A DNA stretch of 11,214 bases from an uncultured Deinococcales bacterium (GCA_964247135.1 CAXTTL010000160.1:1-11214); one strand, 5' to 3'. Shown: positions 358 to 11,213, numbered from the stretch's first letter. Notes: generated by a model not told the origin, from the sequence alone. A program made the numbers and translations.

Positions 358-1344
358 CTACCACCATTTGCGCCATTTAAAATACGCGGCGAAAGCCAGC
401 GCGGCTACAATAAAACTGCCCCAAGCGAACGCATAACCGTACTTCCAATGCAGTTCGGGCATGAACACGTAATTCATGCCCCAAACGCCAGCCAAAAACG
501 TTAAGGGCAAAAAAATCGTGCTGACCGTGGTCAAGGTTTTCATGACTTCATTCATGCGGTTGCTTTGAACGGTCAAATGCACGTCCAGCAAACTCGAGAG
601 CACATCTCTGGCACTGTCGATGCCATCATAAATTCGGGTCAAGTGGTCGCTGACATCGCGCAGGTATATTGCACCTTCGGGCGAAAGGGCGCTGGCGTGC
701 CGCGAGAATTGAGCCACATTCTCGCGGGCGCTCGAGGCAAGTCTGCGTGCCGCAATGATGGTGTGTTTGAGTTCAAAGACCTTTGCCGCAAATTCTTGGC
801 TCGGCATGATTCGCGTCGGATGAAACACTTGTTCCTCGAGTTCGTCGGTACGCAGCTCGAGTTCGTCGAGAAAAATAAAAAACGTGTCTGTGCCCTCATC
901 TAAAATCGTGTAAAGCACATCGGTGGCGCTTAAACCTTTGCGATTCTCGAGTTCTTTCCAAGTGCCTTCAATGTACGTGATTGGTTCTTGGCGAATGGTG
1001 ACCACACTCTCGAGGTCTGGATACCAAAAGATGGCAACTTTCTCGGTTCTGTCCGTGACATCTTCGGGTTCGGCAAGCGTGCGCAAGACCAAAAACAAAT
1101 GCTCGGGGTAAGATTCAAATCGCGCCCACTGCTCGGGGTCGAGTGCATCCTCGAGCGCAAGACGGTTGAATCTAAAATGTTTACCCAACCGCAGCAAGTC
1201 CACCTCGTGCGGGTTTTCGACATCGACCCAAACCCGATGCTGTTTTTGCTCGAGCGACAAATCTTGGTTGGTGTCCAAGCATTTCACCCGAATTCCAGGT
1301 TTGGCGGCGATCATCGGGTGTTTGGATTCGGGGACAGGCAGCAC
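358..1344 (-). CDS. corA: CorA-family Mg2+/Co2+ transporter
   Basis: 328 aa with the GMN signature (GVWGMN), MPEL motif, two C-terminal TM helices and a KWRKWW end. The GTG start is supported by a TAAACT box 6 nt upstream. Confidence 0.95.
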   Translation of the reverse strand: MLPVPESKHPMIAAKPGIRVKCLDTNQDLSLEQKQHRVWVDVENPHEVDLLRLGKHFRFNRLALEDALDPEQWARFESYPEHLFLVLRTLAEPEDVTDRTEKVAIFWYPDLESVVTIRQEPITYIEGTWKELENRKGLSATDVLYTILDEGTDTFFIFLDELELRTDELEEQVFHPTRIMPSQEFAAKVFELKHTIIAARRLASSARENVAQFSRHASALSPEGAIYLRDVSDHLTRIYDGIDSARDVLSSLLDVHLTVQSNRMNEVMKTLTTVSTIFLPLTFLAGVWGMNYVFMPELHWKYGYAFAWGSFIVAALAFAAYFKWRKWW

Positions 1345-1350
1345 CAGGTT

Positions 1351-1367
1351 AGTTTAACCGTTAAGCT
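1351..1367. promoter_or_regulatory. Back-to-back -10 boxes of divergent, probably leaderless promoters
   Basis: Minus-strand TAAACT (1356-1351) lies 6 nt before the corA GTG. Plus-strand TAAGCT (1362-1367) lies 6 nt before the ATG at 1374. No Shine-Dalgarno is seen on either side. Confidence 0.75.
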
Positions 1368-1373
1368 GAAAGC

Positions 1374-2183
1374 ATGACAGAATTTCAAACCAAACTCGAG
1401 CCGATTTTAAAAGCTTTTTCTGGTGAAATTGGTTTTTATGCCAAACGCCTCGATGATGCTTTCACGCTCGAGCACAACAAAAACGAGGTCTTCGCCGCCG
1501 CCAGCGTCGTCAAAGTCCCGATTTTACTCGAGGCGTTACGCCAAGTTCAGCATGGAATTTTGAATCTTCAGACCAGAATTCCAATGCCAGCACTCGAGCA
1601 AGTTGGCGGCTCTGGGGTTTTAATGGCATTTCAACCTGGACTCGAGCCGACGTTGCAAGATTATTTGACCATGATGATTGTGGTATCGGACAACACCGCG
1701 ACCAACATCAGTTTGGATGCCGTCGGCGGTCACGATACAGTCAACTCGAGTTTGGCAAACTGGGGTTGCTTGAAAACAACTGTGGTTGGGAAATTGATGT
1801 TGACCGACGACCGTAAAAACGCCGATCAACTCGCGGGCAAACGCGCCGAAGTCACCCCGTTTGAAAGCGTGATGCTGCTCGAGAAACTGTATCGCGGCGA
1901 AATTCTCGATCCCGAACTGACCAAACTCGCCCTCGAGATTCTCGAGAAACAGCAGTACACCGAAATTCTGGCGCGGTACTTGCCTGACGGTACGCGAACC
2001 GCCACCAAAAGCGGTCAGATTATTGGCGTGCGAAATGATGTTGGTCTTGTGCTGACCGAACGCCCGTATGTTCTCGCGCTTTGCTCCAAAAATTGCAGCG
2101 ACGAGCGCTATCATGTGGACAACGAAGCTGTTTTAGCGTTGGGGAAAATCTCGAGATTGGTGTTTGATGTGATGGTGTCATGA
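1374..2183 (+). CDS. Serine hydrolase, class A beta-lactamase-like fold (Beta-lactamase2/PBP-A type)
   Basis: SxxK (ASVVK), SDN and KSG motifs in the expected order. No signal peptide and no recognisable ExxLN omega-loop. Confidence 0.88.
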   Translation: MTEFQTKLEPILKAFSGEIGFYAKRLDDAFTLEHNKNEVFAAASVVKVPILLEALRQVQHGILNLQTRIPMPALEQVGGSGVLMAFQPGLEPTLQDYLTMMIVVSDNTATNISLDAVGGHDTVNSSLANWGCLKTTVVGKLMLTDDRKNADQLAGKRAEVTPFESVMLLEKLYRGEILDPELTKLALEILEKQQYTEILARYLPDGTRTATKSGQIIGVRNDVGLVLTERPYVLALCSKNCSDERYHVDNEAVLALGKISRLVFDVMVS

Positions 2184-2225
2184 TCTCGAGATTTGCCTTG
2201 ATTGATTTGATGTTTTCGTTGTGTG

Positions 2226-2253
2226 GTAGGGCGAACACAAGGTTCGCCCCTAC
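2226..2253. repeat. GTAG-type REP-like palindrome
   Basis: GTAGGGCGAAC-acaag-GTTCGCCCCTAC: inverted repeat with a single bulge and GTAG/CTAC ends, intergenic. Confidence 0.7.
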
Positions 2254-2277
2254 GGGTTTGGTATGTTTGAGTTGACC

Positions 2278-2286
2278 TGATAATCT
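2278..2286 (+). promoter_or_regulatory. Extended -10 box of polX (probably leaderless)
   Basis: TGa-TAATCT ends 5 nt before the ATG at 2292. No Shine-Dalgarno. Confidence 0.6.
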
Positions 2287-2291
2287 GAATC

Positions 2292-3980
2292 ATGGACAAG
2301 AAACAAGCACTCAATGCCATCAGCCTCACCGCAGACATTCTCGAGCTTCTGGGACAAGACGAATTCAAGGTTCTGGCGTACCGCAAAGCCGAACGGATGC
2401 TCGAGCGTTTTGACGGCGACTGGGATGAGGCGCTGGCAACGAATTTCAAAAAAGTTTCGGGCATCGGGGCGCAACTCGGCTCGAGTTTGATGGAGTTCGC
2501 GGATTCGGGTGTGTTCGCACCGCTGACCGATGTGGCATCCTTGGTGCCGCCTGGGGTGCTCGAGTTGTTTCGGGTACGCGGCTTGGGACCCAAAAAAGTT
2601 CGGGTCTTGTGGGATGCTGGCGTGGATGGCATTTCGGGTTTGCTCGAGGTTGGGCGTTCGGGCAAACTGGCAACTTTAAAAGGATTTGGTGCGGCGAGCA
2701 GCGCCAAAATAATTGATGATGCAGAATTTACCTTAAAGTCCAGTGAGCGCAGGTTGATCGCTGAGGCTCGAGCGGTCTTTGGGATGCTGTCAGACCAGTT
2801 GCAGGGTGTCGTCACGCGTCTCGAGCCTGCTGGCAGCTTGACGCGCGGTTTGGAGACGTGTGGCGACGTGGATGCGGTGGCGATTGGAGATCGTGACGCG
2901 GCACTGAAGGCACTCGAGGGTTTTGGGGCGAAAGATGACCCAGAATATCCGTGGCTGATTGCGGCAAACATCGAGGGCGTCAACGTTCAATTGCAAGTCT
3001 CGAGCGTTGAAACTTGGGGCGCGGCGAAACTGATGTTGACGGGTTCAAAACCGTTTCTAGAGATTGTGAAGGCTCGAGCTTTAGAAAAAGGTATTGATTT
3101 CTCAGCTCGCGGATTGTTCAACAATGGCGTTTTGATTCCAACCCTGACCGAAAACGATGCCTTTCAAGAGCTTGACCTCGAGTACGTGATTCCCGAATGG
3201 CGCGAGGCGGAACACTTGGGTCGAACTGACCTGCCGAATCCCGAAAAATTGATTCAGCTTTCGCAAATGCGCGGCATGTTGCATGTACACAGCACCTGGT
3301 CGGACGGCGCGGCAAGTCTGCGCGACATGGCACTTGGCGCGAAGGCTCGAGGGGCGAAATACCTGGGCATTTGCGACCACAGCAAAAGCGCGTTTTACGC
3401 CAACGGATTAGACGAAACTCGGGTTCAAGCACAGTGGCGCGAGATTGAGGCGTTGAATGCGGAACTCGAGGATTTTAAAATTTTGAAAGGTATCGAATCG
3501 GATATTTTGTCAAATGGCGACCTCGATTATGCCGATGAAATTCTGGCTGGGTTCGATTTTGTGGTTGCCAGCATTCACTCGAGCTTTGGTCTGCCCGAAG
3601 TCCAACAAACAGAACGTCTGGTTCGGGCGGTGTCCAATCCGTTCACGACCATTCTGGGGCATCCGACAGGACGGCTTTTGCTGCGCCGCCCACCCTACAA
3701 ATTCGATCACGCCGCCGTGCTCGAGGCGGCAAAGGTTCACAACACCGTCATCGAAATCAACGCCAGCCCCTACCGTCTCGACCTTGACTGGCGCGAGGTT
3801 TTGGAAGCTCGAGCCTCAGGTTTGAAATTTGCCATCAACACCGACGCCCACAGGGTTCAGGGTTTTGACGACCTTTGGTACGGCGTTCAAGCCGCCCGCA
3901 AAGCCGCCCTCGAGACGAATATGGTCGTCAACACGCTCGAGCTGGAGGATTTTTTGAATTTGGCTCGAGCCAAGCGGTAG
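2292..3980 (+). CDS. polX: DNA polymerase X family protein with C-terminal PHP nuclease domain
   Basis: HhH motifs (VSGIG, VRGLGPKK, LKGFG), palm GSLTRGLETCGDVD, TGSK. PHP motifs HVHS, CDHS, GIESD, SIHS, GHPTGR and NTDAH. Confidence 0.93.
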   Translation: MDKKQALNAISLTADILELLGQDEFKVLAYRKAERMLERFDGDWDEALATNFKKVSGIGAQLGSSLMEFADSGVFAPLTDVASLVPPGVLELFRVRGLGPKKVRVLWDAGVDGISGLLEVGRSGKLATLKGFGAASSAKIIDDAEFTLKSSERRLIAEARAVFGMLSDQLQGVVTRLEPAGSLTRGLETCGDVDAVAIGDRDAALKALEGFGAKDDPEYPWLIAANIEGVNVQLQVSSVETWGAAKLMLTGSKPFLEIVKARALEKGIDFSARGLFNNGVLIPTLTENDAFQELDLEYVIPEWREAEHLGRTDLPNPEKLIQLSQMRGMLHVHSTWSDGAASLRDMALGAKARGAKYLGICDHSKSAFYANGLDETRVQAQWREIEALNAELEDFKILKGIESDILSNGDLDYADEILAGFDFVVASIHSSFGLPEVQQTERLVRAVSNPFTTILGHPTGRLLLRRPPYKFDHAAVLEAAKVHNTVIEINASPYRLDLDWREVLEARASGLKFAINTDAHRVQGFDDLWYGVQAARKAALETNMVVNTLELEDFLNLARAKR

Positions 3981-3997
3981 GGTGCGCCGTGCGCACC
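3977..3997 (+). repeat. GTAG-type REP-like hairpin overlapping the polX stop codon; possible terminator between convergent genes
   Basis: GTAG followed by GGTGCGC-cgt-GCGCACC, a perfect 7-bp stem. CTACC at 4004-4008 complements GGTAG at 3976-3980. Confidence 0.65.
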
Positions 3998-4011
3998 GAT
4001 GTTCTACCGTT

Positions 4012-4659
4012 TTAAACCCCAATTTGTGGGCACAACTCGAGCAATTGACAGCCAGAGCAATTTGGCACTCTGGCAAAGCACACGCGTCTGCCGTGCAAAA
4101 TCAGCGAGTGATGCACAAAAATCCAGTGTTCAATCGGGAAAATCGCTTCCAAATCAACCTCGACCAAATCGGGGTTGGTGTTGCTCGAGAAGTTCAAGCG
4201 TCGCCCGAGCCTGCCAACGTGGGTGTCCACGGCAATGCCTGGTCGTCCGTAAATGTTTGACAGCACCACATTGGCGGTTTTTCTGCCGACCCCTGGCAGG
4301 GTTTGAATGGCATCAAAATCGTTCGGCACTTGACCCTCGAAACGTTCGACCAAGGCTCGAGCGGTGGCGGCGATGTTCTTGGCTTTGTTGTGATGAAAAT
4401 TCACTTTGCTGATGTAAGGCTCGAGTTCATCTGCCGTGGCGAGCGCCATTTTTTCGGCGGTCGGATAGGTTTCAAACAGTTTTTTGGTCGCCAAGTTGAC
4501 GCTGACGTCGGTGGCTTGGGCGCTTAAAATCGTGGCAATCAACAGCTCGAAAGGGGTTGTGTAAACCAGTTCGGTCGTGGCGTTCGGATACGTCTCGAGC
4601 AGTGTGGAAAGCACTTGTGAAGCTCGAGCGAGTTTGTTTTTTTTGGTTTCTTTTGGCAC
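4012..4659 (-). CDS. nth: Endonuclease III (HhH-GPD DNA glycosylase/AP lyase)
   Basis: LSAQATD, HhH LPGVGRKTAN with the catalytic Lys, VDTHV with the catalytic Asp, and the 4Fe-4S motif C-x6-C-x2-C-x5-C. The GTG start is preceded by TACACT-N6. Confidence 0.96.
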   Translation of the reverse strand: MPKETKKNKLARASQVLSTLLETYPNATTELVYTTPFELLIATILSAQATDVSVNLATKKLFETYPTAEKMALATADELEPYISKVNFHHNKAKNIAATARALVERFEGQVPNDFDAIQTLPGVGRKTANVVLSNIYGRPGIAVDTHVGRLGRRLNFSSNTNPDLVEVDLEAIFPIEHWIFVHHSLILHGRRVCFARVPNCSGCQLLELCPQIGV

Positions 4660-4665
4660 GTTTTA

Positions 4666-4671
4666 AGTGTA
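4666..4671 (-). promoter_or_regulatory. -10 box of nth (probably leaderless)
   Basis: TACACT-taaaac-GTG on the minus strand. Confidence 0.7.
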
Positions 4672-4681
4672 CCTGAAATGG

Positions 4682-6463
4682 TTAGAACATCTCGAGTTCT
4701 TCGCGGGTTTTTCTGGTTTTGTCCTCAATTTCGGGTTCGACCAGTTTGAAACTTTCCACGTCGAACAAGCCACGGTCGGTCAGTTTCAGGCTTGGAATCA
4801 CGGTCAAACCCAAAAACGCCAGGGTCATGATCGGGTGCGGCAGGGTGCAGCCCAACACCCGAGCGATGGTTTCAAATTCGGTCTGGGCTTTGAGGAGTTC
4901 TGTCGGGTGGGCGTCGCTGATCAAACCAGCAATCGGCAGGGCGATGCTGGCGGCAATTTCGCCGTCTTCGACGATCACCGCGCCGCCACCCATGCGCTCG
5001 AGTTCGCGCACGGCAATCACCATGTCGCTGTCGTCAACTCCTGCCACGATGATGTTGTGCGCGTCGTGAAGCACGGTTTGCGCCATTGCGCCGCGCCGCA
5101 AGCCGATGCCTTTGGCAAAGCCGACGCCGGTGCGTCCAGTCCCGTGGTGGCGTTCAATCACCGCGAGCTTGACCAGATCGCGGTCTGGGTCGGCGGCGTG
5201 CAGGTTTTCGGGTTCGAGTTTTCCAGTGTAAATCTGGTCCTTGTGCACGACCATGACGGGCAGTATGTGTTGGTCGTCGGGCGCGAGCCTCGAGATGTCC
5301 CAGTGCTCTGGGAGCTTGATGCTGTTTTCAAATTGCGTTGTATCTGCTGTGGCTTCGTCCTCCTCGATCAGTTTTCCGTCTCGAGCGACTATTTCACCGG
5401 CAATCATGGTCCATTCGGTTTTGAAATCGCTCAAATCGTCGAACAACACCAAATCGGCGGCATAACCTGGGGCAATCGCGCCTCGGTACTCGAGGTGCCA
5501 GTATTCGGCGGGCGCAAGTGAGCACAACCTGATGGCGTAAACCGGATCGATCCCGTTTTTGACCGCCTCGCGCAGCAACCTGTCCATGTGACCGAGTTCG
5601 ATCAATTCCCTGGCATCGACATCGTCGGACACCAGCATGGCGCGGTGGGGTTGGGTGCGGGTCAGCAGCGGTGCGATGGCAGCCAGATTTCGTGCCGCGC
5701 TGCCCTCACGAACCATCAACCACAAACCGGCGCGTAAACGCTCAAAAGCCTCGAGTTCGGTGGTGGCTTCATGATCGCTGTGAATCCCAGAGGCAACATA
5801 TGCCGTCAATTCACGCCCCGACAAACCTGCGGCATGACCGTCGCGGCGACGACCTTTTGCCGCCTCGAGAATGTTCCAGACGGTGCTGTCTTCGTTCAGG
5901 ACGCCAGGGTAATTCATCATTTCAGCCAAACCCAGCACACCGTCCATCTTCAGCGCCAATTTGACCTCGCCAGCCAGGACGCTCGAGCCAGCATTTTCAA
6001 ATGCACTGGCGGGCACACAACTCGGCACGCTCGCCCAAACGTGAAGCGGCGTCTCCTTGCCGGCGTCGAGCATGTAGGTCAAACCTTTGATGCCCATGAC
6101 GTTGACCAACTCGTGCGGTTCGGCGACCACGCCGACCGTGCCGCGCGGCAGGCAGGTTTGGGCAAAACGGCGCGGGGTCATCATGGCGCTCTCGAGGTGA
6201 ATGTGCGCGTCGATCAAGCCGGGCGACAAAAATTTGCCTTTGGCGTCAATGATGGTCGCGGCGTCCAAGTATTCACCGATGGCGGCAATAAAACCGCCGC
6301 AAATGGCAACGTTGGCGCGGTAAATGGTTTTGGTCATGACATCGACCACACGGGCATTTTTCACCACCACATCGGCGGCGTCTTTTCCTCGAGCCACCCG
6401 AACCAACCGTTGGCGTTCAATCAGTGGAGCTTCCATGTCGGCGGTGTAACGCTTGGGCTGCAT
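4682..6463 (-). CDS. ade: Adenine deaminase (amidohydrolase superfamily)
   Basis: 593 aa with PGLIDAHIHLES, EPHE, PSCVPA, LAEMMNYPG, DGHA, SDHE, REGSAARNL, SDD, HDAHN and IPSLKLTDRGL motifs. Confidence 0.95.
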   Translation of the reverse strand: MQPKRYTADMEAPLIERQRLVRVARGKDAADVVVKNARVVDVMTKTIYRANVAICGGFIAAIGEYLDAATIIDAKGKFLSPGLIDAHIHLESAMMTPRRFAQTCLPRGTVGVVAEPHELVNVMGIKGLTYMLDAGKETPLHVWASVPSCVPASAFENAGSSVLAGEVKLALKMDGVLGLAEMMNYPGVLNEDSTVWNILEAAKGRRRDGHAAGLSGRELTAYVASGIHSDHEATTELEAFERLRAGLWLMVREGSAARNLAAIAPLLTRTQPHRAMLVSDDVDARELIELGHMDRLLREAVKNGIDPVYAIRLCSLAPAEYWHLEYRGAIAPGYAADLVLFDDLSDFKTEWTMIAGEIVARDGKLIEEDEATADTTQFENSIKLPEHWDISRLAPDDQHILPVMVVHKDQIYTGKLEPENLHAADPDRDLVKLAVIERHHGTGRTGVGFAKGIGLRRGAMAQTVLHDAHNIIVAGVDDSDMVIAVRELERMGGGAVIVEDGEIAASIALPIAGLISDAHPTELLKAQTEFETIARVLGCTLPHPIMTLAFLGLTVIPSLKLTDRGLFDVESFKLVEPEIEDKTRKTREELEMF

Positions 6464-6469
6464 AAGGAG

Positions 6470-6475
6470 AGTTTA
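6470..6475 (-). promoter_or_regulatory. -10 box of ade (probably leaderless)
   Basis: TAAACT-ctcctt-ATG on the minus strand. Confidence 0.7.
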
Positions 6476-6516
6476 AGCCAACAAACCTCCGAGATGCGGT
6501 TAAAACCGCGCAGTAT

Positions 6517-7647
6517 TCAGGCAATCGTGACGTTGACATCGGTGGTCAGCAAATCGGCGGTGTCGTGCGGGGCGCTGCGGCTGAGTTCAATTCGGTTGCG
6601 CCCAAAGGTTTTGGCTTGATACAGCGCCTCATCGGCGCGTTTGACCAAGCTCGAGACGCGCTCGTCTTGTTTGAGGTACGCCACACCGAAGCTGGCGGTC
6701 ACGCGGCTGACGACCTTAAAAGGATGAACCTGCATTCGTTTGCGAATGTGATCGGCAAATTCGGCGGCTTCCTCGAGCGAACTGCCAGGCACGACAATCA
6801 AAAATTCTTCGCCGCCCCAACGCCCAATCGTGGCTCGAGGTTCGATGGCGAGGATCAGACCCTTCACCAATCTTACGGTTTCGCGCAGCACATGATCGCC
6901 GACGTCATGACCGTACTTGTCGTTGATGTTTTTAAAGTGATCCAAGTCAAACAACACCACCGCCATTTTTAGCGGTTGCACGCTGTTGGAACGCAGCACG
7001 TGCAGAATTTGACGGCGGTTGGCGGCGCCAGTCAGCGGGTCGATGGCGGACCGCAAACGCTCGAGCGCCAGCAGTTCTTTGCTCGAGGCGAGCACTTGGG
7101 TCAGGGCAAAACTGGTTGAGGCGAAGGCAAGATAACGGGCGAACAGCAAAAAGTTTTGGGTGTTGCCGTTAATCGCTTCGGGAACGAATTTGAAAAGACC
7201 CAATAAACTCAGCGTTCCATACAAGCCCAAACCGATTTGAAAGGCTTGTTTGTTATCAAATGACAGGTGAATCATTTGAATCACAATGAGCGCTTGCCAA
7301 AACCAGCCGATGCTTAACTCTTGTTGGATTTTGAATCCGCTCGGTAAAAAAAACAGGGTGTAAATAAATTCTGACACCACTGAAAGCATCACCACGGCAG
7401 TGGTCGACTTTTCGATCAGTTTGAGGGGAAGTACTTTAACAAGCGTCAGTGCAAACAAAACGATGGTGGAAATCAGTAAAAGCGGATATGTGGCTCGAAT
7501 ATAGGGATTTAAATCTTTTTGCGTCAGCGAAATCAAGGCGATAGCCAAGATCGCCGTTAAAAATGCCAGCAGGTAAAAACGATAGCGCAATCCAACTGAG
7601 GTTTCACCGGCAGTATCTTCAAGGGCTTTATCGCTCAGACGCCGCAT
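6517..7647 (-). CDS. Membrane-anchored diguanylate cyclase (GGDEF domain)
   Basis: About six hydrophobic N-terminal segments, then DPLTGAANRR, DLDHFKNINDKYGHDVGD, RWGGEEF, TASFGVA and ADEALYQAK..GRN. TATACT lies 8 nt upstream of the ATG. Confidence 0.93.
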   Translation of the reverse strand: MRRLSDKALEDTAGETSVGLRYRFYLLAFLTAILAIALISLTQKDLNPYIRATYPLLLISTIVLFALTLVKVLPLKLIEKSTTAVVMLSVVSEFIYTLFFLPSGFKIQQELSIGWFWQALIVIQMIHLSFDNKQAFQIGLGLYGTLSLLGLFKFVPEAINGNTQNFLLFARYLAFASTSFALTQVLASSKELLALERLRSAIDPLTGAANRRQILHVLRSNSVQPLKMAVVLFDLDHFKNINDKYGHDVGDHVLRETVRLVKGLILAIEPRATIGRWGGEEFLIVVPGSSLEEAAEFADHIRKRMQVHPFKVVSRVTASFGVAYLKQDERVSSLVKRADEALYQAKTFGRNRIELSRSAPHDTADLLTTDVNVTIA

Positions 7648-7984
7648 CTTGGTTCAGTATAACGGCTGGCTGTGAAATTCTTAAGTGACTCAATACGACG
7701 TGTCTATCACGTAATACTATTGTTTTAAGCAAATTTTTTTATGAAACAAACATGGCTTTGATGTGCCACCTCGCCACAAGCAATCACCCAAATTGGGTTG
7801 AACGCAAAAATTTTAATTCATTCTCGAGATTTGATCTGAAGCGTTCAGGCTCGAGTTCGGTATCGCCACGTTTGTTTTACAATGCTATTCAAGTTCAACC
7901 GATGCCTCAAGCATCGGGTGGGCATTTGCACCTGGATTAACGCGTATGCTGGGAAAAGTTTCTCGAGTGTTAAAGGAGTTCGCC

Positions 7985-8188
7985 ATGAACCGTGATAATG
8001 GAGCTACGTTGTTTGGAACAGTATTTTTCTTAATTTTGGCTTTGGTTGCTTTCTTGTTTGGGTTTTACCCTTACCCTCAAGCCGATGCCGAAAATGGTAT
8101 TCGCACCCTGGGCAAAATCGCAGCGGTCGCCTTGGTGGTCGGCGCGGTGCTGGCTGGTGTAAGCGGTTCGCTCGAGCATAAAGAATAA
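7985..8188 (+). CDS. Small two-TM membrane protein, unknown function (67 aa)
   Basis: AAGGAG Shine-Dalgarno at 7973-7978 favours ATG 7985 over the track start at 7946. Two hydrophobic helices, followed by a terminator-like hairpin. Confidence 0.75.
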   Translation: MNRDNGATLFGTVFFLILALVAFLFGFYPYPQADAENGIRTLGKIAAVALVVGAVLAGVSGSLEHKE

Positions 8189-8203
8189 TTTCTTTTAAGG
8201 AAT

Positions 8204-8244
8204 TGAGGTTCGGGGTTTGTGTTGACCTCGAGCCTCATATTTTG
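8204..8244 (+). terminator. Intrinsic terminator-like hairpin between convergent genes
   Basis: TGAGGTTCGGGGT-ttgtgttg-ACCTCGAGCCTCA forms a 13-bp stem with two G-U pairs in the plus-strand RNA, followed by TATTTTT. Confidence 0.6.
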
Positions 8245-8615
8245 GCTTTTGGCTTGCTGGCGTTTTGCTCTTCAAGAATCCAAGCTTTCCAAGCTGCCTC
8301 TGCCAATCCAACCGTCACGTATTTTCCGTACCTGACCAGCGGCAACCGCAGCAACTTTGGCTCGGCTTCAATTTTTGCCAGCATTCCCTCATCGGACACC
8401 CGCAAAAACTCGAGTCCGGCGTCAATGTAGGCTTTGCCAGCAATGTCCAAAACCGTGTTCAAACCAAATTTTTGAATGAACCGATTGATCTCCCCAGCGC
8501 TCATGGGTCGGTCGTGCAAGTCCACGTCGTGCGTTTTGATGCGGCGTTCCTTAAAAAAACGCATCGCCGCTCGGGTTTCTTTTGATGATTTCAGACCAAA
8601 AATTTGGACTTCCAT
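8235..8615 (-). CDS. ArsC/Spx/MgsR (YffB-like) thioredoxin-fold protein without cysteines
   Basis: VQIFG...TRAAMRFFKER and PKLLRLPLVR family motifs. Start moved to ATG 8615 because TAAAAT (8627-8622) lies exactly 6 nt upstream. Confidence 0.85.
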   Translation of the reverse strand: MEVQIFGLKSSKETRAAMRFFKERRIKTHDVDLHDRPMSAGEINRFIQKFGLNTVLDIAGKAYIDAGLEFLRVSDEGMLAKIEAEPKLLRLPLVRYGKYVTVGLAEAAWKAWILEEQNASKPKAKI

Positions 8616-8655
8616 GTCCACATTTTACTATCTCGAGCCAGAATCATTGTTGGGT

Positions 8656-8661
8656 TAAACT
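8656..8661 (+). promoter_or_regulatory. -10 box of the uricase gene (probably leaderless)
   Basis: TAAACT-aaacc-ATG. Confidence 0.65.
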
Positions 8662-8666
8662 AAACC

Positions 8667-9578
8667 ATGAAAACCCAGATTTCTTACGGCAAATTTAACA
8701 TTTCCCTGCACCGCACGTATGCTGCGCCGCTCAAGGTCTCCGCCATTCCAGAGTCAGAATTTGTTGGGCGCAACAACAACCTTTTTGCTGTGGATGTCAG
8801 CGTCGAAGTCTTTGGAAACAACTTTTTGCCCGCCTACACCCACGGCGACAACAGCATGGTGGTTGCCACGGACAGCATGAAAAACTTCATCCTCAAAGAA
8901 TCCGCAAATTTTAAAGGCAGCACGCTCGAGGGTCTGCTCGAGTTTTTGGGGAAGCGTTTTTTGGCAACCTATTCGCAGATGGAAAGCTTGCGCATGATGG
9001 GACGCGAATTGCCGTTTCTTGCCGCTCGAGTTCCTGGGAAAAATGGGTTTGAAAACAGCGATGTCCTGCATTACCCGACAAACGGTGACGCCGCAACCGC
9101 CAGCCTCTACCTCGAGCGCAATACAAATGATTCACAGGTCATCGACCTCGAGTGCGGACGCGAAGGTTTTCAACTTCTGAAAATCACCGGTTCGAGTTTT
9201 GCCGCGTTCGTGCGCGACGATTACACGACCCTGCCCGAACTCAAAGACCGCCCATTGTTCATTCATATGGATTTAAACTGGACGTACTCGAGCATTGCCG
9301 ACGGTTTGGGCGTTGCAAAATACGTGCCGAGCGAGCAGATCGCCGATATTTGCCGTGTTATTTTTCACCAGTTCAATTCCAAATCGATTCAGGAACTCGT
9401 GTACAAATTTGGCGAACGGATTCTCGAGCGATTCCCGCAACTGATGCGTGTCAGTTTTGAGGCGCAAAACCACACTTGGGACAAAGCGACCGAACTCGAG
9501 GGCAGTGATAAAGTCAAGGTTTTCTGGGAACCAAAAGTGCCTTACGGTTATATTTCGCTGACCATGACCAGGGATTGA
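8667..9578 (+). CDS. pucL: Urate oxidase (factor-independent uricase)
   Basis: N-terminal SYGK, AYTHGDNSMVVATDSMKN, LLKITGSSF, DDYTTLPE..DRPL, SKSIQ and C-terminal PYG motifs. Confidence 0.93.
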   Translation: MKTQISYGKFNISLHRTYAAPLKVSAIPESEFVGRNNNLFAVDVSVEVFGNNFLPAYTHGDNSMVVATDSMKNFILKESANFKGSTLEGLLEFLGKRFLATYSQMESLRMMGRELPFLAARVPGKNGFENSDVLHYPTNGDAATASLYLERNTNDSQVIDLECGREGFQLLKITGSSFAAFVRDDYTTLPELKDRPLFIHMDLNWTYSSIADGLGVAKYVPSEQIADICRVIFHQFNSKSIQELVYKFGERILERFPQLMRVSFEAQNHTWDKATELEGSDKVKVFWEPKVPYGYISLTMTRD

Positions 9579-9579
9579 A

Positions 9580-10302
9580 ATGAAAGTCGCCGTCTTCAGC
9601 GATGTACACGGCAATCGTTTTGCGCTCGAGGCGGTGCTTGCCGACATCTCGAGTTTGAAACCAGATTTGATGCTGAACTTGGGCGATACCGTGTTGGGTG
9701 GTGCTGATCCTGCTGGCGCGTTAAAGCTCCAACTCGAGTGCGTCGCATTGATGGTGCGGGGCAATGCCGACGAAGAAGTCGCAAATCCAGAATCTGACCT
9801 CGAACCTGCGCGTCTCGAGGTGGTGAATTGGTTGCGTGGTTTGCTGGCTGAAAACGATCTCAAAACACTCGAGAATCTGCCAACCATGCTCGAGGTTGCA
9901 AACGGTGAAATTCTCGCGTGTCACGGAAACCTCGAGACACCTTGGAAATTTTTGATGCTGCGCGACGACCCGCAAACCTTCACAGATTACGCCAGTTCAG
10001 AACAACTTCTCTCAAGAATCCAAAAATACCCAAAAGCAAAAGTTGTGCTTTGCGGTCATTCACACCGCGCTCGAGTTGTGACCACCAACGGAGTGCAATT
10101 CGTCAATGTCGGCAGCGTTTCCAGACAACCCGACGGCGACCCTCGAGCGCGATGGGCATTGCTCACTCGAGATGAAAACACTTGGCACGTCGAACACAAA
10201 TTCACGCCTTACGATGTCGAAGCCGCCGCAAATTGGGCGCTTGAGAATGCACCCGACGGCGAACTCGAGGCTCAAAAATTACAAACTGGACGCGGCGTTT
10301 AA
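9580..10302 (+). CDS. Metallophosphoesterase (calcineurin-like, YfcE/MJ0912 type)
   Basis: SDVHGN, LGD, RGNAD, CHG, GHSH and NVGSV motifs. Starts 1 nt after the uricase stop (TGA-A-ATG), which suggests translational coupling. Confidence 0.9.
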   Translation: MKVAVFSDVHGNRFALEAVLADISSLKPDLMLNLGDTVLGGADPAGALKLQLECVALMVRGNADEEVANPESDLEPARLEVVNWLRGLLAENDLKTLENLPTMLEVANGEILACHGNLETPWKFLMLRDDPQTFTDYASSEQLLSRIQKYPKAKVVLCGHSHRARVVTTNGVQFVNVGSVSRQPDGDPRARWALLTRDENTWHVEHKFTPYDVEAAANWALENAPDGELEAQKLQTGRGV

Positions 10303-10330
10303 TCAAGCCATTCGAGAAAAAATCAAAACT

Positions 10331-10369
10331 CCCTTCTCTCGCTTGCGAGAGAAGGGTCGGGGATGAGAG
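10331..10369. repeat. Purine/pyrimidine-asymmetric REP-like hairpin; likely bidirectional terminator
   Basis: CCCTTCTCTCGC-tt-GCGAGAGAAGGG is a perfect 12-bp inverted repeat, followed by tcGGGGATGAGAG, and lies between convergent stop codons. Confidence 0.7.
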
Positions 10370-10379
10370 CAGGCGCTAC

Positions 10380-11213
10380 TCAGTTTTTGATTTTCACCAA
10401 ATCCCGCAGCAGCCCGTCCAAACCGTTTGAAATGTTGATCTGATCGATGTTCTCAGTGATTCGCTCGAGCGTCTCGAGTTCTTTGAGCCTGAGTGCCACG
10501 GGGTTGTCCTCCATGACTTTGGCGGTGTTGAGCAAGCTTCGGGTCGCGGCGGTTTCCTTTCGGCGTCTGATACCGTTGGCTTGCGCAACTTTTTCGGCTT
10601 CGACCACTTTGGACAAAATCGCCTTCATCTCGCCTGGCAAAATAATGTCTTTGACGCCGACTGAATCGACCACCAATCCAAAGCCTTCAGATTTGGTTTT
10701 CACGTGCTCAAACACCACGTTGTCCAGCACGTCTTTGTCCTCGAGCAATGCGTCCAGGGTTCGCGTTCCGACAGCCGCCCGCAAACCGAGTTGCAATTCT
10801 TTGTACAAGAACACTTCTAAGTCTTTGAGTTTGCTGGTCGCCAAAATCGCGTCCGTCACGCGGTATGAGGCACTCAAGTTGAGCCGCAACGCGACTTTGT
10901 CTTTGGTCAGAATCTCTTGACCGCCCACCTCGAGCGTTTGAAGCCGCGAATCCACGATTGCCACACGCAAATTCCGCCCGATTTTCCAGAAGGCATGAGC
11001 GCCGACTTCCAGCACGCCCTCGAGTTTGCCGTCCACAAACAACGCGCCACTGTGATACTCGGGAATGGACACGTTTTCGATGTACTGCTCGAGCTTGGTG
11101 CCTTTGAGGTTTGCGGCAATGTCGGCGCGAACGCGGAAATCGCTGGCAATGTTCACCGTCTCGAGTTTGGTTACACCGTCGTCGAAGTACATGGCAGAGG
11201 CGGTTGGCGGAAT
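10380..11213 (-). CDS. SPFH/band-7 (slipin-family) protein, probably 5' partial
   Basis: GQEILTKDKVALRLN, RTLDALLEDK, GVKDIILPGEMK and ETAATRSLLNTAKVMEDNPVALRLKELE motifs. The frame stays open past ATG 11192 to the window edge. Confidence 0.9.
   Translation of the reverse strand: MPPTASAMYFDDGVTKLETVNIASDFRVRADIAANLKGTKLEQYIENVSIPEYHSGALFVDGKLEGVLEVGAHAFWKIGRNLRVAIVDSRLQTLEVGGQEILTKDKVALRLNLSASYRVTDAILATSKLKDLEVFLYKELQLGLRAAVGTRTLDALLEDKDVLDNVVFEHVKTKSEGFGLVVDSVGVKDIILPGEMKAILSKVVEAEKVAQANGIRRRKETAATRSLLNTAKVMEDNPVALRLKELETLERITENIDQINISNGLDGLLRDLVKIKN

Follow-up and report, generated by a model that had tools for sequence, protein, structure and literature searches.

The highly iterated palindrome HIP1 was recognized some three decades ago, and what it does is still under debate, with methylation-linked repair, chromosome structure and transformation as the proposals. 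The DNA uptake sequences (DUS) of Neisseria and the uptake signal sequences (USS) of Pasteurellaceae are non-palindromic words of 9-12 bases that occur about once per kb. Restriction targets are normally avoided, and in E. coli very-short-patch repair raises the frequency of CCWGG less than twofold and depletes its T-variant word. The present analysis concerns the palindromic hexamer CTCGAG in a stretch of 11,214 nucleotides from an uncultured Deinococcales bacterium (GCA_964247135.1, CAXTTL010000160.1:1-11214), hereafter "the window", which is contig C160 of the genome G000 (5.09 Mb in 386 contigs, the longest of 115 kb; 52.7% G+C; estimated completeness 84%). An earlier reading of this DNA, here called the original prediction, had described CTCGAG as a HIP1-like, dispersed and frame-independent palindrome. 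HIP1 itself (GCGATCGC) and alternate HIPs are known from cyanobacteria (Elhai, 2015, PMC4390886; Xu, Lawrence and Durand, 2018, PMC5861425); according to these papers, HIP1 occurs about once per 1,000 nt, a methyltransferase is present wherever a HIP is frequent (Elhai, 2015), and HIP1 is periodic at a scale of 10-90 kb (Xu et al., 2018). In Nocardia, a conserved orphan methyltransferase recognizes CTCGAG, and the motif is clustered near the origin, in the region from dnaA to a DNA polymerase III gene (Blow et al., 2016, PMC4752239). The system found in the window and its relatives is a denser and independent counterpart of HIP1 in another phylum: CTCGAG is a word acting on double-stranded DNA, and a directional, selection-like, chromosome- and family-wide force writes it and keeps it.

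The window contains exactly 92 copies of CTCGAG, which begin at 593 and end with the copy at 11160-11165, with a mean spacing of ~116 bases over this span. Dinucleotide-preserving shuffles of the window (n = 200) yield a mean of 2.38 copies and at most 9, and none of them reaches 92; the count of about 92 in the original prediction was therefore accurate, and its expectation of ~2.7 lies slightly above the shuffled mean. Open reading frames (ORFs) hold 87 of the copies; frame 0, in which the word reads Leu-Glu, accounts for 58 of them, frame 1 for 15 and frame 2 for 14, and the octamer GCTCGAGC contains 15 of the 92. The claim that every native gene carries the word agrees with the presence of sites in all ten Pfam-supported genes (8, 10, 19, 6, 10, 5, 1, 8, 11 and 7 copies in order of position). 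Five of the six positions that had been called intergenic (2185, 7823, 7850, 8227 and 8632) are so, the sixth (7962) being located inside an 80-amino-acid ORF without family support.

Across G000, CTCGAG is found 33,925 times, i.e., at 6.66 copies per kb, and occupies 4% of all bases, while 1,369 copies are expected from base composition at zero order (an excess of ~25-fold) and 586 from a first-order Markov model with the sites masked. It is the commonest hexamer with a more than twofold lead, the runners-up being its own overlaps. Since all 297 contigs longer than 5 kb carry at least 2.5 copies per kb, the excess is not limited to the contig of the window. Likewise, each of the 18 other family genomes, one of them a single contig, is enriched, the word is in frame and conserved at orthologous positions of other genomes, and three of the relatives stem from differently named isolates. 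For an artefact of assembly, library or binning, no support was found, G000 being fragmented and incomplete to the extent stated above; this explanation is refuted and retains next to no probability.

Neither coding nor composition accounts for the excess. In a set of 4,514 ORFs of at least 100 amino acids, picked greedily by length from G000, there are 28,532 copies, of which 17,385 (61%), 4,543 and 6,604 lie in frames 0, 1 and 2, respectively. When synonymous codons are shuffled within each gene (n = 5), keeping the protein, ~3,100, 340 and 570 sites are obtained in the three frames, which the observed numbers exceed 5.6, 13 and 12 times; this null is generous because it retains codon usage that CTCGAG itself has made. 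Moreover, density is 7.5 per kb outside the ORF set compared with 6.5 per kb inside, and CTCGAG is the top hexamer in non-coding DNA as well. The word could still be imagined as a by-product of composition, of preferred codons or dipeptides, or of other palindromes being avoided, as the preponderance of frame 0 and the near-absence of several palindromes from G000 would suggest (GAGCTC 0, GGGCCC 1, CGGCCG 3, CAGCTG 15 and GGCC 380 copies). However, the excess persists after the dinucleotide shuffle, against the first-order Markov model and, for each frame, after the codon shuffle; non-coding DNA is no poorer in the word, and CTC and GAG are minority codons outside Leu-Glu. The composition explanation is thus refuted, and a by-product of any of these kinds is very improbable. 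The original prediction had itself named loss under a codon-preserving null, and confinement to one contig or an artefact, as outcomes that would speak against it; the data run the other way on both counts, and the description of CTCGAG as a dispersed, frame-independent palindrome extends to all frames, to non-coding DNA, to the whole genome and to the lineage.

The word has also left its mark on the proteome. Leu-Glu is the most over-represented dipeptide of G000 (22,634 copies, 2.40 times expectation), while Glu-Leu occurs 9,596 times, or 1.02 times expectation, and Ser-Ser, one frame-2 reading of CTCGAG, reaches 1.63 times expectation. Among the Leu-Glu pairs, 17,385 (77%) are written as CTCGAG, while outside such pairs Leu is encoded by CTC in 15% of cases and Glu by GAG in 33%, and the surplus of Leu-Glu above expectation amounts to ~13,000 pairs. 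The abundance of CTCGAG has altered protein sequences, and the force behind it, which acts in every frame and between genes, prevails over the choice among synonymous codons and, in part, over that of residues. At the window sites, residues are unchanged in distant orthologues in 11 of 44 comparisons, about what an identity of 42-57% gives, which adds nothing to the dipeptide statistics. On contig C86 of G000 (4108-6882), a 713-amino-acid ORF that is the best match to GTP_EFTU, and which by inference encodes elongation factor G, has 4.2 copies per kb, and a 156-amino-acid ORF upstream of it has none, at a genome median of 6.3 per kb; low values in these two conserved genes are as expected if protein constraint limits the word.

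Comparison with relatives separates the keeping of sites from their making. In the orthologous DNA of two congeners, which are 84-85% identical to the window, CTCGAG is conserved at 72 of 91 and 71 of 88 sites (79-81%), compared with 38-40% for other hexamers. A codon-level test modeled on that of Xu et al. (2018, PMC5861425), covering the window genes with the two congeners pooled, gives the same outcome as for HIP1, i.e., conservation beyond that of the codons: CTC is conserved in 101 of 114 cases inside CTCGAG vs. 41 of 96 outside, and GAG in 104 of 114 vs. 57 of 104. Between genera of the family, only 25 of the 92 window sites are positionally common, and the orthologues nonetheless hold 69 (seven orthologue comparisons, with an amino-acid identity of 62-69% in six and 54% in one); therefore, new copies arose separately in each genus. 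The force thus holds existing sites and has made new ones genus by genus, which agrees with the earlier proposal of a genome-wide process that creates or keeps CTCGAG.

The distribution of the trait was followed by counting CTCGAG, GCTCGAGC and reversed control words in 151 genomes of the order:

f1, the family of the window: 19 of 19 genomes, 12,028-35,442 copies of CTCGAG, 4.3-6.8 per kb
f3, mostly genus g7: 36 genomes, 37-1,193 copies, reversed control word likewise low
f5, genus g9: 22 genomes, 1,455-2,537 copies, near the control count
f5, genus g13: 10 genomes, 3,336-9,836 copies, reversed control word 650-1,634
f5, genera g22 and g24: 3 genomes, 7,478-12,522 copies, raised
f2, genera g6, g21, g31, g36 and g23: 7 genomes, 6,036-10,948 copies, raised; remaining f2 genera not raised

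Outside the family of the window, the excess is weak, takes the form of the octamer GCTCGAGC, or is absent. That related taxa (Meiothermus) contain CTCGAG-rich sequence, as the original prediction suggested, is plausible, and the sister-family genus g13, with its surplus over the control word, has the property in question. The octamer accounts for 6.6-14% of CTCGAG sites in the window's family. In the 3.0-Mb genome G027, by comparison, it embraces 2,645 of 3,131 CTCGAG sites (84%), and in the 1.9-Mb genome G053 940 of 1,531 (61%); within a G027 sample of 148 kb, no octamer is commoner than GCTCGAGC (129 copies, 0.87 per kb), which contains 129 of 168 CTCGAG, and G precedes the hexamer at 86% of sites. 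In genus g9, all 22 genomes have 4-19 copies of GCTCGAGC, vs. 18-210 of the reversed control octamer, a scarcity that may point to an unrecognized 7- or 8-base restriction activity. The octamer being iterated in G027 and G053 and near-absent in g9, one word is under opposite pressures in sister lineages. The order thereby offers a graded series, from no excess through avoidance and an octamer at ~1 per kb to a hexamer at ~6.7 per kb. In viral contigs, at least 120 stretches with three CTCGAG within ~100 bases were seen, mostly of high G+C and with the reversed word also present, which has no bearing on phages of the window's family.

The surroundings of the word are informative about what might recognize it. 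In non-coding DNA, the flanks are mirror-symmetric, with A at -3 (43%), A at -2 (33%) and G at -1 (35%) on one side and C at +1 (36%), T at +2 (34%) and T at +3 (42%) on the other, each against a background of ~25%; beyond ~4 bases the bias is at background. CTCGAG therefore reads as a strict hexamer inside a weak palindrome of 12-14 bp. None of the words that differ from it at one position is depleted, all occurring at 0.66-2.5 times expectation. With a change at the outer position (NTCGAG), all three variants reach 1.7-1.9 times the expected number, whereas at the inner positions transition variants alone are raised, a pattern that looks like mutational decay combined with a softer outer position. 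Gaps between copies in G000 have a mean of 148 and a median of 108 bases, with a coefficient of variation (CV) of 0.96. Regular spacing was considered and rejected: the gaps look random save for a 3-base periodicity, which is due to the frame-0 bias, and for a repulsion between neighbors that is strong below ~25 bases and gone by ~80. Accordingly, the hazard of meeting the next site is 1.6 per kb at 6-10 bases, compared with 6.4 at 20-25 and 8.4 at 80-200. The nearer the next site, the less often Leu-Glu is written as CTCGAG (16% at a distance of 6-9 bases, 45% at 9-15, 57% at 15-18, 70% at 18-24 and 83-86% at 60-200), and non-coding pairs closer than 15 bases are depleted to 0.32 and 0.70 of expectation. 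Sites thus interfere across ~1.5-2 helical turns, which would fit the footprint of a protein. A role of CTCGAG pairs as terminator stems is unsupported, since non-coding pairs 15-25 bases apart are at expectation (0.99 and 1.13). Nor is the word part of a longer unit such as a repetitive extragenic palindromic (REP) element or a miniature inverted-repeat transposable element, given its background flanks beyond ~4 bases and near-random spacing, and it is not a signal of the Chi type, i.e., asymmetric and strand-oriented, because it is its own reverse complement and carries no orientation.

The original prediction placed an orphan CTCGAG or TCGA methyltransferase among its candidate causes. G000 was searched for DNA methyltransferases of five Pfam families (PF01555, PF00145, PF02384, PF02086 and PF07669), which returned 12 loci. 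Six of these adjoin a nuclease:

C178: Eco29kI nuclease adjoins; CCGCGG 11 copies
C320: SacI-like nuclease adjoins; GAGCTC 0 copies
C14: NgoPII nuclease adjoins; GGCC 380 copies
C189: MvaI/BcnI nuclease adjoins; CCSGG 856 copies vs. 12,871 expected
C36: PvuII nuclease adjoins; CAGCTG 15 copies
C207: NotI-like nuclease adjoins; CGGCCG 3 copies and GCGGCCGC 0

The other loci are a type I system, two MmeI-like enzymes, a 1,499-amino-acid fusion, a PF01555 fragment at a contig end (C4) and a patchily distributed 466-amino-acid protein. Every type II methyltransferase found in G000 pairs with a nuclease for another, near-absent word, and after inspection of the 12 loci none is left that could be assigned to CTCGAG, within an 84% complete genome and the five families. 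Three individual candidates were rejected. The C36 methyltransferase (349 amino acids, PF01555) adjoins a PvuII-family nuclease, matching the rarity of CAGCTG, and its close orthologues are confined to two further family genomes and a scatter of genomes outside the family; the 466-amino-acid protein of C4, a partial methyltransferase match, is present in only 7 of 19 family genomes; and the C207 enzyme has its NotI-like neighbor and a rare CGGCCG. Further palindromes are rare in G000 with no system found for them (GGGCCC 1, AGGCCT 4, CGTACG 5, GGATCC 7 and GCATGC 17 copies).

Across the order, the enzymes that should recognize CTCGAG or its core do not follow the trait. The XhoI nuclease family (PF04555) was found in 6 of 151 genomes and in 0 of 19 of the window's family. 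In five of the six carriers (G021, G033, G045, G097 and G105, all of a sister family and with an intact nuclease) it adjoins a PF01555 methyltransferase, which belongs with TTHA0409 of T. thermophilus (PDB 2ZIE). This XhoI-partner enzyme has 30 close homologues (E ≤ 2e-93), namely 13 in f4, 15 in g9, one in g30 and one in G027, and the window's family yields only paralogue-level matches to it (best E 3e-17). The TaqI_C domain is present in 22 of 22 g9 genomes and in 6 of 18 genomes of the window's family, and was not found in G000, G011, G005 or G009. When ORFs of at least 150 amino acids at PF01555, PF00145, PF02384 and PF02086 loci of six family genomes (G000, G005, G007, G009, G011 and G012) were clustered at an identity of 40% or higher, no cluster spanned more than three of the six, and the complete single-contig genome G011 has no PF01555 at all. 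Vsr was not found in G000. Thus, none of XhoI-partner methyltransferase, TaqI_C domain, XhoI nuclease and Vsr tracks the trait, and the force on CTCGAG has no tie to a restriction system or methyltransferase among those detected. The orphan-methyltransferase proposal found no support in this mapping, nor did the expected correlation with XhoI- or TaqI-type enzymes appear: the TaqI type is universal in g9, which lacks the excess.

One alternative explanation is methylation-coupled biased repair, as Elhai proposed it for HIP1, in which an orphan methyltransferase marks CTCGAG or TCGA and a methyl-directed or mismatch-specific repair step converts near-cognate words and restores mutated sites. 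It gains from the fact that six-base palindromes are typical targets of type II methyltransferases, from the co-occurrence of cyanobacterial HIP words with a matching methyltransferase and the outer bias of HIP1 one-off variants, which CTCGAG shares (PMC4390886), and from the orphan CTCGAG methyltransferase of Nocardia (PMC4752239). It is kept alive by G027, where GCTCGAGC at 0.87 per kb accompanies an apparently orphan homologue of the XhoI-partner enzyme (63% identity). However, the window's family lacks the XhoI nuclease, a close partner enzyme and a widely held TaqI_C domain, PF01555 is missing from G011, no methyltransferase cluster is common to more than half of the six genomes and there is no Vsr in G000. 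Conversely, g9 possesses the enzymes, 15 of its 22 genomes having a close XhoI-partner homologue (without the XhoI nuclease) and all 22 the TaqI type, yet its CTCGAG count is near control. Moreover, no one-off word is depleted, unlike the prediction of very-short-patch repair. On this evidence, biased repair is considered unlikely as the source of the excess.

Another possibility is a molecular drive via natural transformation, on the model of DUS and USS, in which the machinery of uptake or recombination prefers DNA with CTCGAG and alleles richer in it spread through homologous replacement without benefit inside the cell. Thermus and Deinococcus are naturally competent, which counts in its favor. 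The word is dense in native DNA and rare in low-GC islands, genes of less than 40% G+C having 1.7 copies per kb vs. 6.8-7.0 in bulk genes, and the 5.09 Mb of G000 contain only 18 gaps longer than 1.5 kb, mostly in such islands (27-40% G+C). CTCGAG resembles uptake sequences in being lineage-specific, dense, scarce in foreign DNA and able to rewrite protein sequence; unlike them it is shorter, palindromic and denser. HIP1 has also been tied to transformation efficiency in two reports (bioRxiv 10.1101/2024.09.10.611283; PMC13756078). However, one hexamer per 150 bases is far denser than an uptake bias at the level of fragments should require, repulsion below 15-25 bases is unexpected if sites simply add to uptake, and the mirror-symmetric flanks indicate a dimeric reader of duplex DNA. 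A drive of this kind appears improbable.

Symmetric flanks and the repulsion of close sites together suggest a dimeric DNA reader. The agent might tentatively be a symmetric, dimeric, sequence-specific DNA reader that is used chromosome-wide, has no cognate methyltransferase and has drifted in specificity between eight and six bases; this is the account preferred here, although it is given somewhat less than an even chance, and part of the remaining probability falls to agents of some other, as yet unimagined kind. Such a reader would contact ~12-14 bp and occupy ~15-20, could use CTCGAG along the whole chromosome for nucleoid organization or as a mark of the cell's own DNA, and would not need a cognate methyltransferase. 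Among sister lineages, the target it prefers would have changed from GCTCGAGC (~1 per kb) to CTCGAG (~6.7 per kb). In its broader form, this proposal describes a HIP-type word without a cognate methyltransferase, with a dimeric reader inherited across Deinococcales whose target makes up 4% of bases in one family, takes shifting 8- and 6-base forms and is counter-selected as GCTCGAGC in a Thermus-like genus (22 of 22 genomes); as a whole it is possible but rather doubtful.

Several observations weigh against a reader. The central actor of the account is a putative protein, and both the conservation and the directional gain of sites are equally expected from biased repair or uptake drive. The avoidance of 6-bp hairpins, or of slippage at close repeats, could produce the same repulsion, and beyond ~80 bases spacing is near-random (CV 0.96, flat hazard), with no sign of a structural lattice. 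Among three congeners, 58 CTCGAG positions are common to all, and apparent losses, seen as positions shared by two genomes (10, 12 and 13), exceed apparent gains, seen as private positions (5, 2 and 7); these numbers are small, and their polarity is biased by parsimony because one state acts as an attractor. Words that are one-off in the other two congeners became CTCGAG in 1 of 36 cases, and rapid creation of the word is not visible at present. The apparently orphan XhoI-partner homologue of G027, TTHA0409-like and located on a 2.5-kb contig, accompanies the octamer and fits the methylation model of HIP1, its presumed specificity being that of its homologues; in G053, no TTHA0409-like methyltransferase was matched at E 1e-8. 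Finally, with G000 84% complete, methyltransferases outside the five searched Pfam families would be missed.

Set beside the described systems, CTCGAG resembles HIP1 most closely. Both are short GC-rich palindromes with an excess of an order of magnitude or more, spread lineage-wide in all frames and between genes, kept beyond codon conservation, outer-biased in their one-off variants and scarce in foreign DNA. For CTCGAG, the features of a HIP-type word that were found are an excess of at least ~15-fold, occurrence in all frames and in non-coding DNA, conserved sites, sharing across the lineage and outer-biased one-offs; a methyltransferase specific for the word or its core was not found in the window's family, within the limits of assembly and families given above, and is seen in the octamer lineage G027, with a specificity inferred from homologues. 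The word of G027 also has the G-hexamer-C layout of HIP1, at ~1 per kb and with an orphan methyltransferase of the matching family, and G053 shares layout and density. Unlike HIP1, CTCGAG is another word in another phylum, a hexamer rather than an octamer in the window's family (the HIP1 core, CGATCG, occurs only 47 times in G000), has 6.7 copies per kb instead of about one per 1,000 nt, raises Leu-Glu 2.4 times in the proteome and comes without a detected cognate methyltransferase. XhoI-type restriction-modification involves the same word, and five sister-family genomes hold the nuclease and methyltransferase pair, but as a resident type II restriction target CTCGAG should be near-absent like the words of the resident pairs, whereas it is enriched, with PF04555 in 0 of 19 genomes and no close partner methyltransferase in the family. 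In Nocardia, CTCGAG likewise has a role outside restriction, but in local clusters, while the family of the window has a genome-wide excess and no such enzyme was found there. The very-short-patch case of E. coli also has a process that raises the frequency of a methyltransferase target word; unlike CCWGG, CTCGAG has a 25-fold excess, no depleted one-off word and no Vsr in G000.

No published account of a CTCGAG excess in Deinococcota was found in a search that was largely without subscription journals and supplements. New are the mapping of methyltransferases and nucleases over 151 genomes with its negative outcome, the symmetry of the flanks, the interference among neighboring sites, the finding that sites persist within a genus but turn over from one genus to another, the lineages with an iterated octamer and the near-lack of that octamer in g9. 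Comparative leverage beyond cyanobacteria comes from the graded series inside a single order, the lack of a detectable methyltransferase in its strongest form and the proteome footprint. If a methyltransferase-free reader exists, this series, which has cultivable members, would make the 30-year-old question of HIP function directly testable. In practice, CTCGAG density is a sharp marker of native vs. imported DNA and a strong signal for metagenome binning, and the word calls for caution in codon-usage and dipeptide statistics, gene design and cloning in these organisms.

The features of the window, with gene assignments from Pfam, are as follows:

593-11165, no strand: CTCGAG-bearing span, 92 copies (positions and shuffles)
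1-592, no strand: CTCGAG-free stretch; first kb of the window 43% G+C
358-1344, minus strand: CorA-type Mg transporter gene; 8 sites, 6 in frame 0 and 2 in frame 2
1374-2183, plus strand: class A beta-lactamase-family gene; 10 sites, 8 in frame 0 and 2 in frame 2
2185-2190, no strand: intergenic CTCGAG, two bases past the beta-lactamase stop codon
2292-3980, plus strand: PolX gene (polymerase beta-like and PHP domain); 19 sites, 11, 5 and 3 in frames 0, 1 and 2
4012-4659, minus strand: HhH-GPD (endonuclease III-like) glycosylase gene; 6 sites
4682-6463, minus strand: adenine deaminase gene; 10 sites
6517-7647, minus strand: GGDEF diguanylate cyclase gene; 5 sites, all in the 3' half (6517-7087)
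7088-7822, no strand: longest CTCGAG-free gap of the window, 741 bases; GGDEF 5' half and upstream spacer, in a kb of 45.5% G+C
7823-7855, no strand: two intergenic CTCGAG (7823 and 7850), upstream of the GGDEF gene
7962-8176, no strand: two CTCGAG (7962 and 8171) inside the 80-amino-acid ORF at 7946-8188 without family support
8227-8232, no strand: intergenic CTCGAG, from the ORF map
8235-8621, minus strand: ArsC-family gene; 1 site
8632-8637, no strand: intergenic CTCGAG, between the divergent ArsC and uricase genes
8667-9578, plus strand: uricase gene; 8 sites
9580-10302, plus strand: metallophosphoesterase gene; 11 sites
10380-11192, minus strand: SPFH/Band 7 gene; 7 sites, all in frame 0

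The copies at 7962 and 8171 may be non-coding. Among the genes of the window no causal one was found, as the original prediction had also stated. PolX, the endonuclease III-like glycosylase and adenine deaminase adjoin one another (2292-6463) and relate to the repair of DNA or nucleobases; their order is retained in same-genus genomes, and no link between this cluster and CTCGAG was found. At the left end, positions 1-285 form an open frame without a family match, and bases 1-357 have no counterpart in any of 20 relatives searched, whose matches all begin at ~353-360. Because it has no CTCGAG, low G+C and no counterpart in these relatives, the segment 1-357 is probably strain-specific imported DNA. 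The spacer past the metallophosphoesterase gene (10303-10372) contains a perfect hairpin with an 11-bp stem and without CTCGAG (10331-10356). It is a dispersed repeat with dozens of copies of 84-97% identity in G000 and same-genus genomes and at least eight in G007, and it looks like a REP element.

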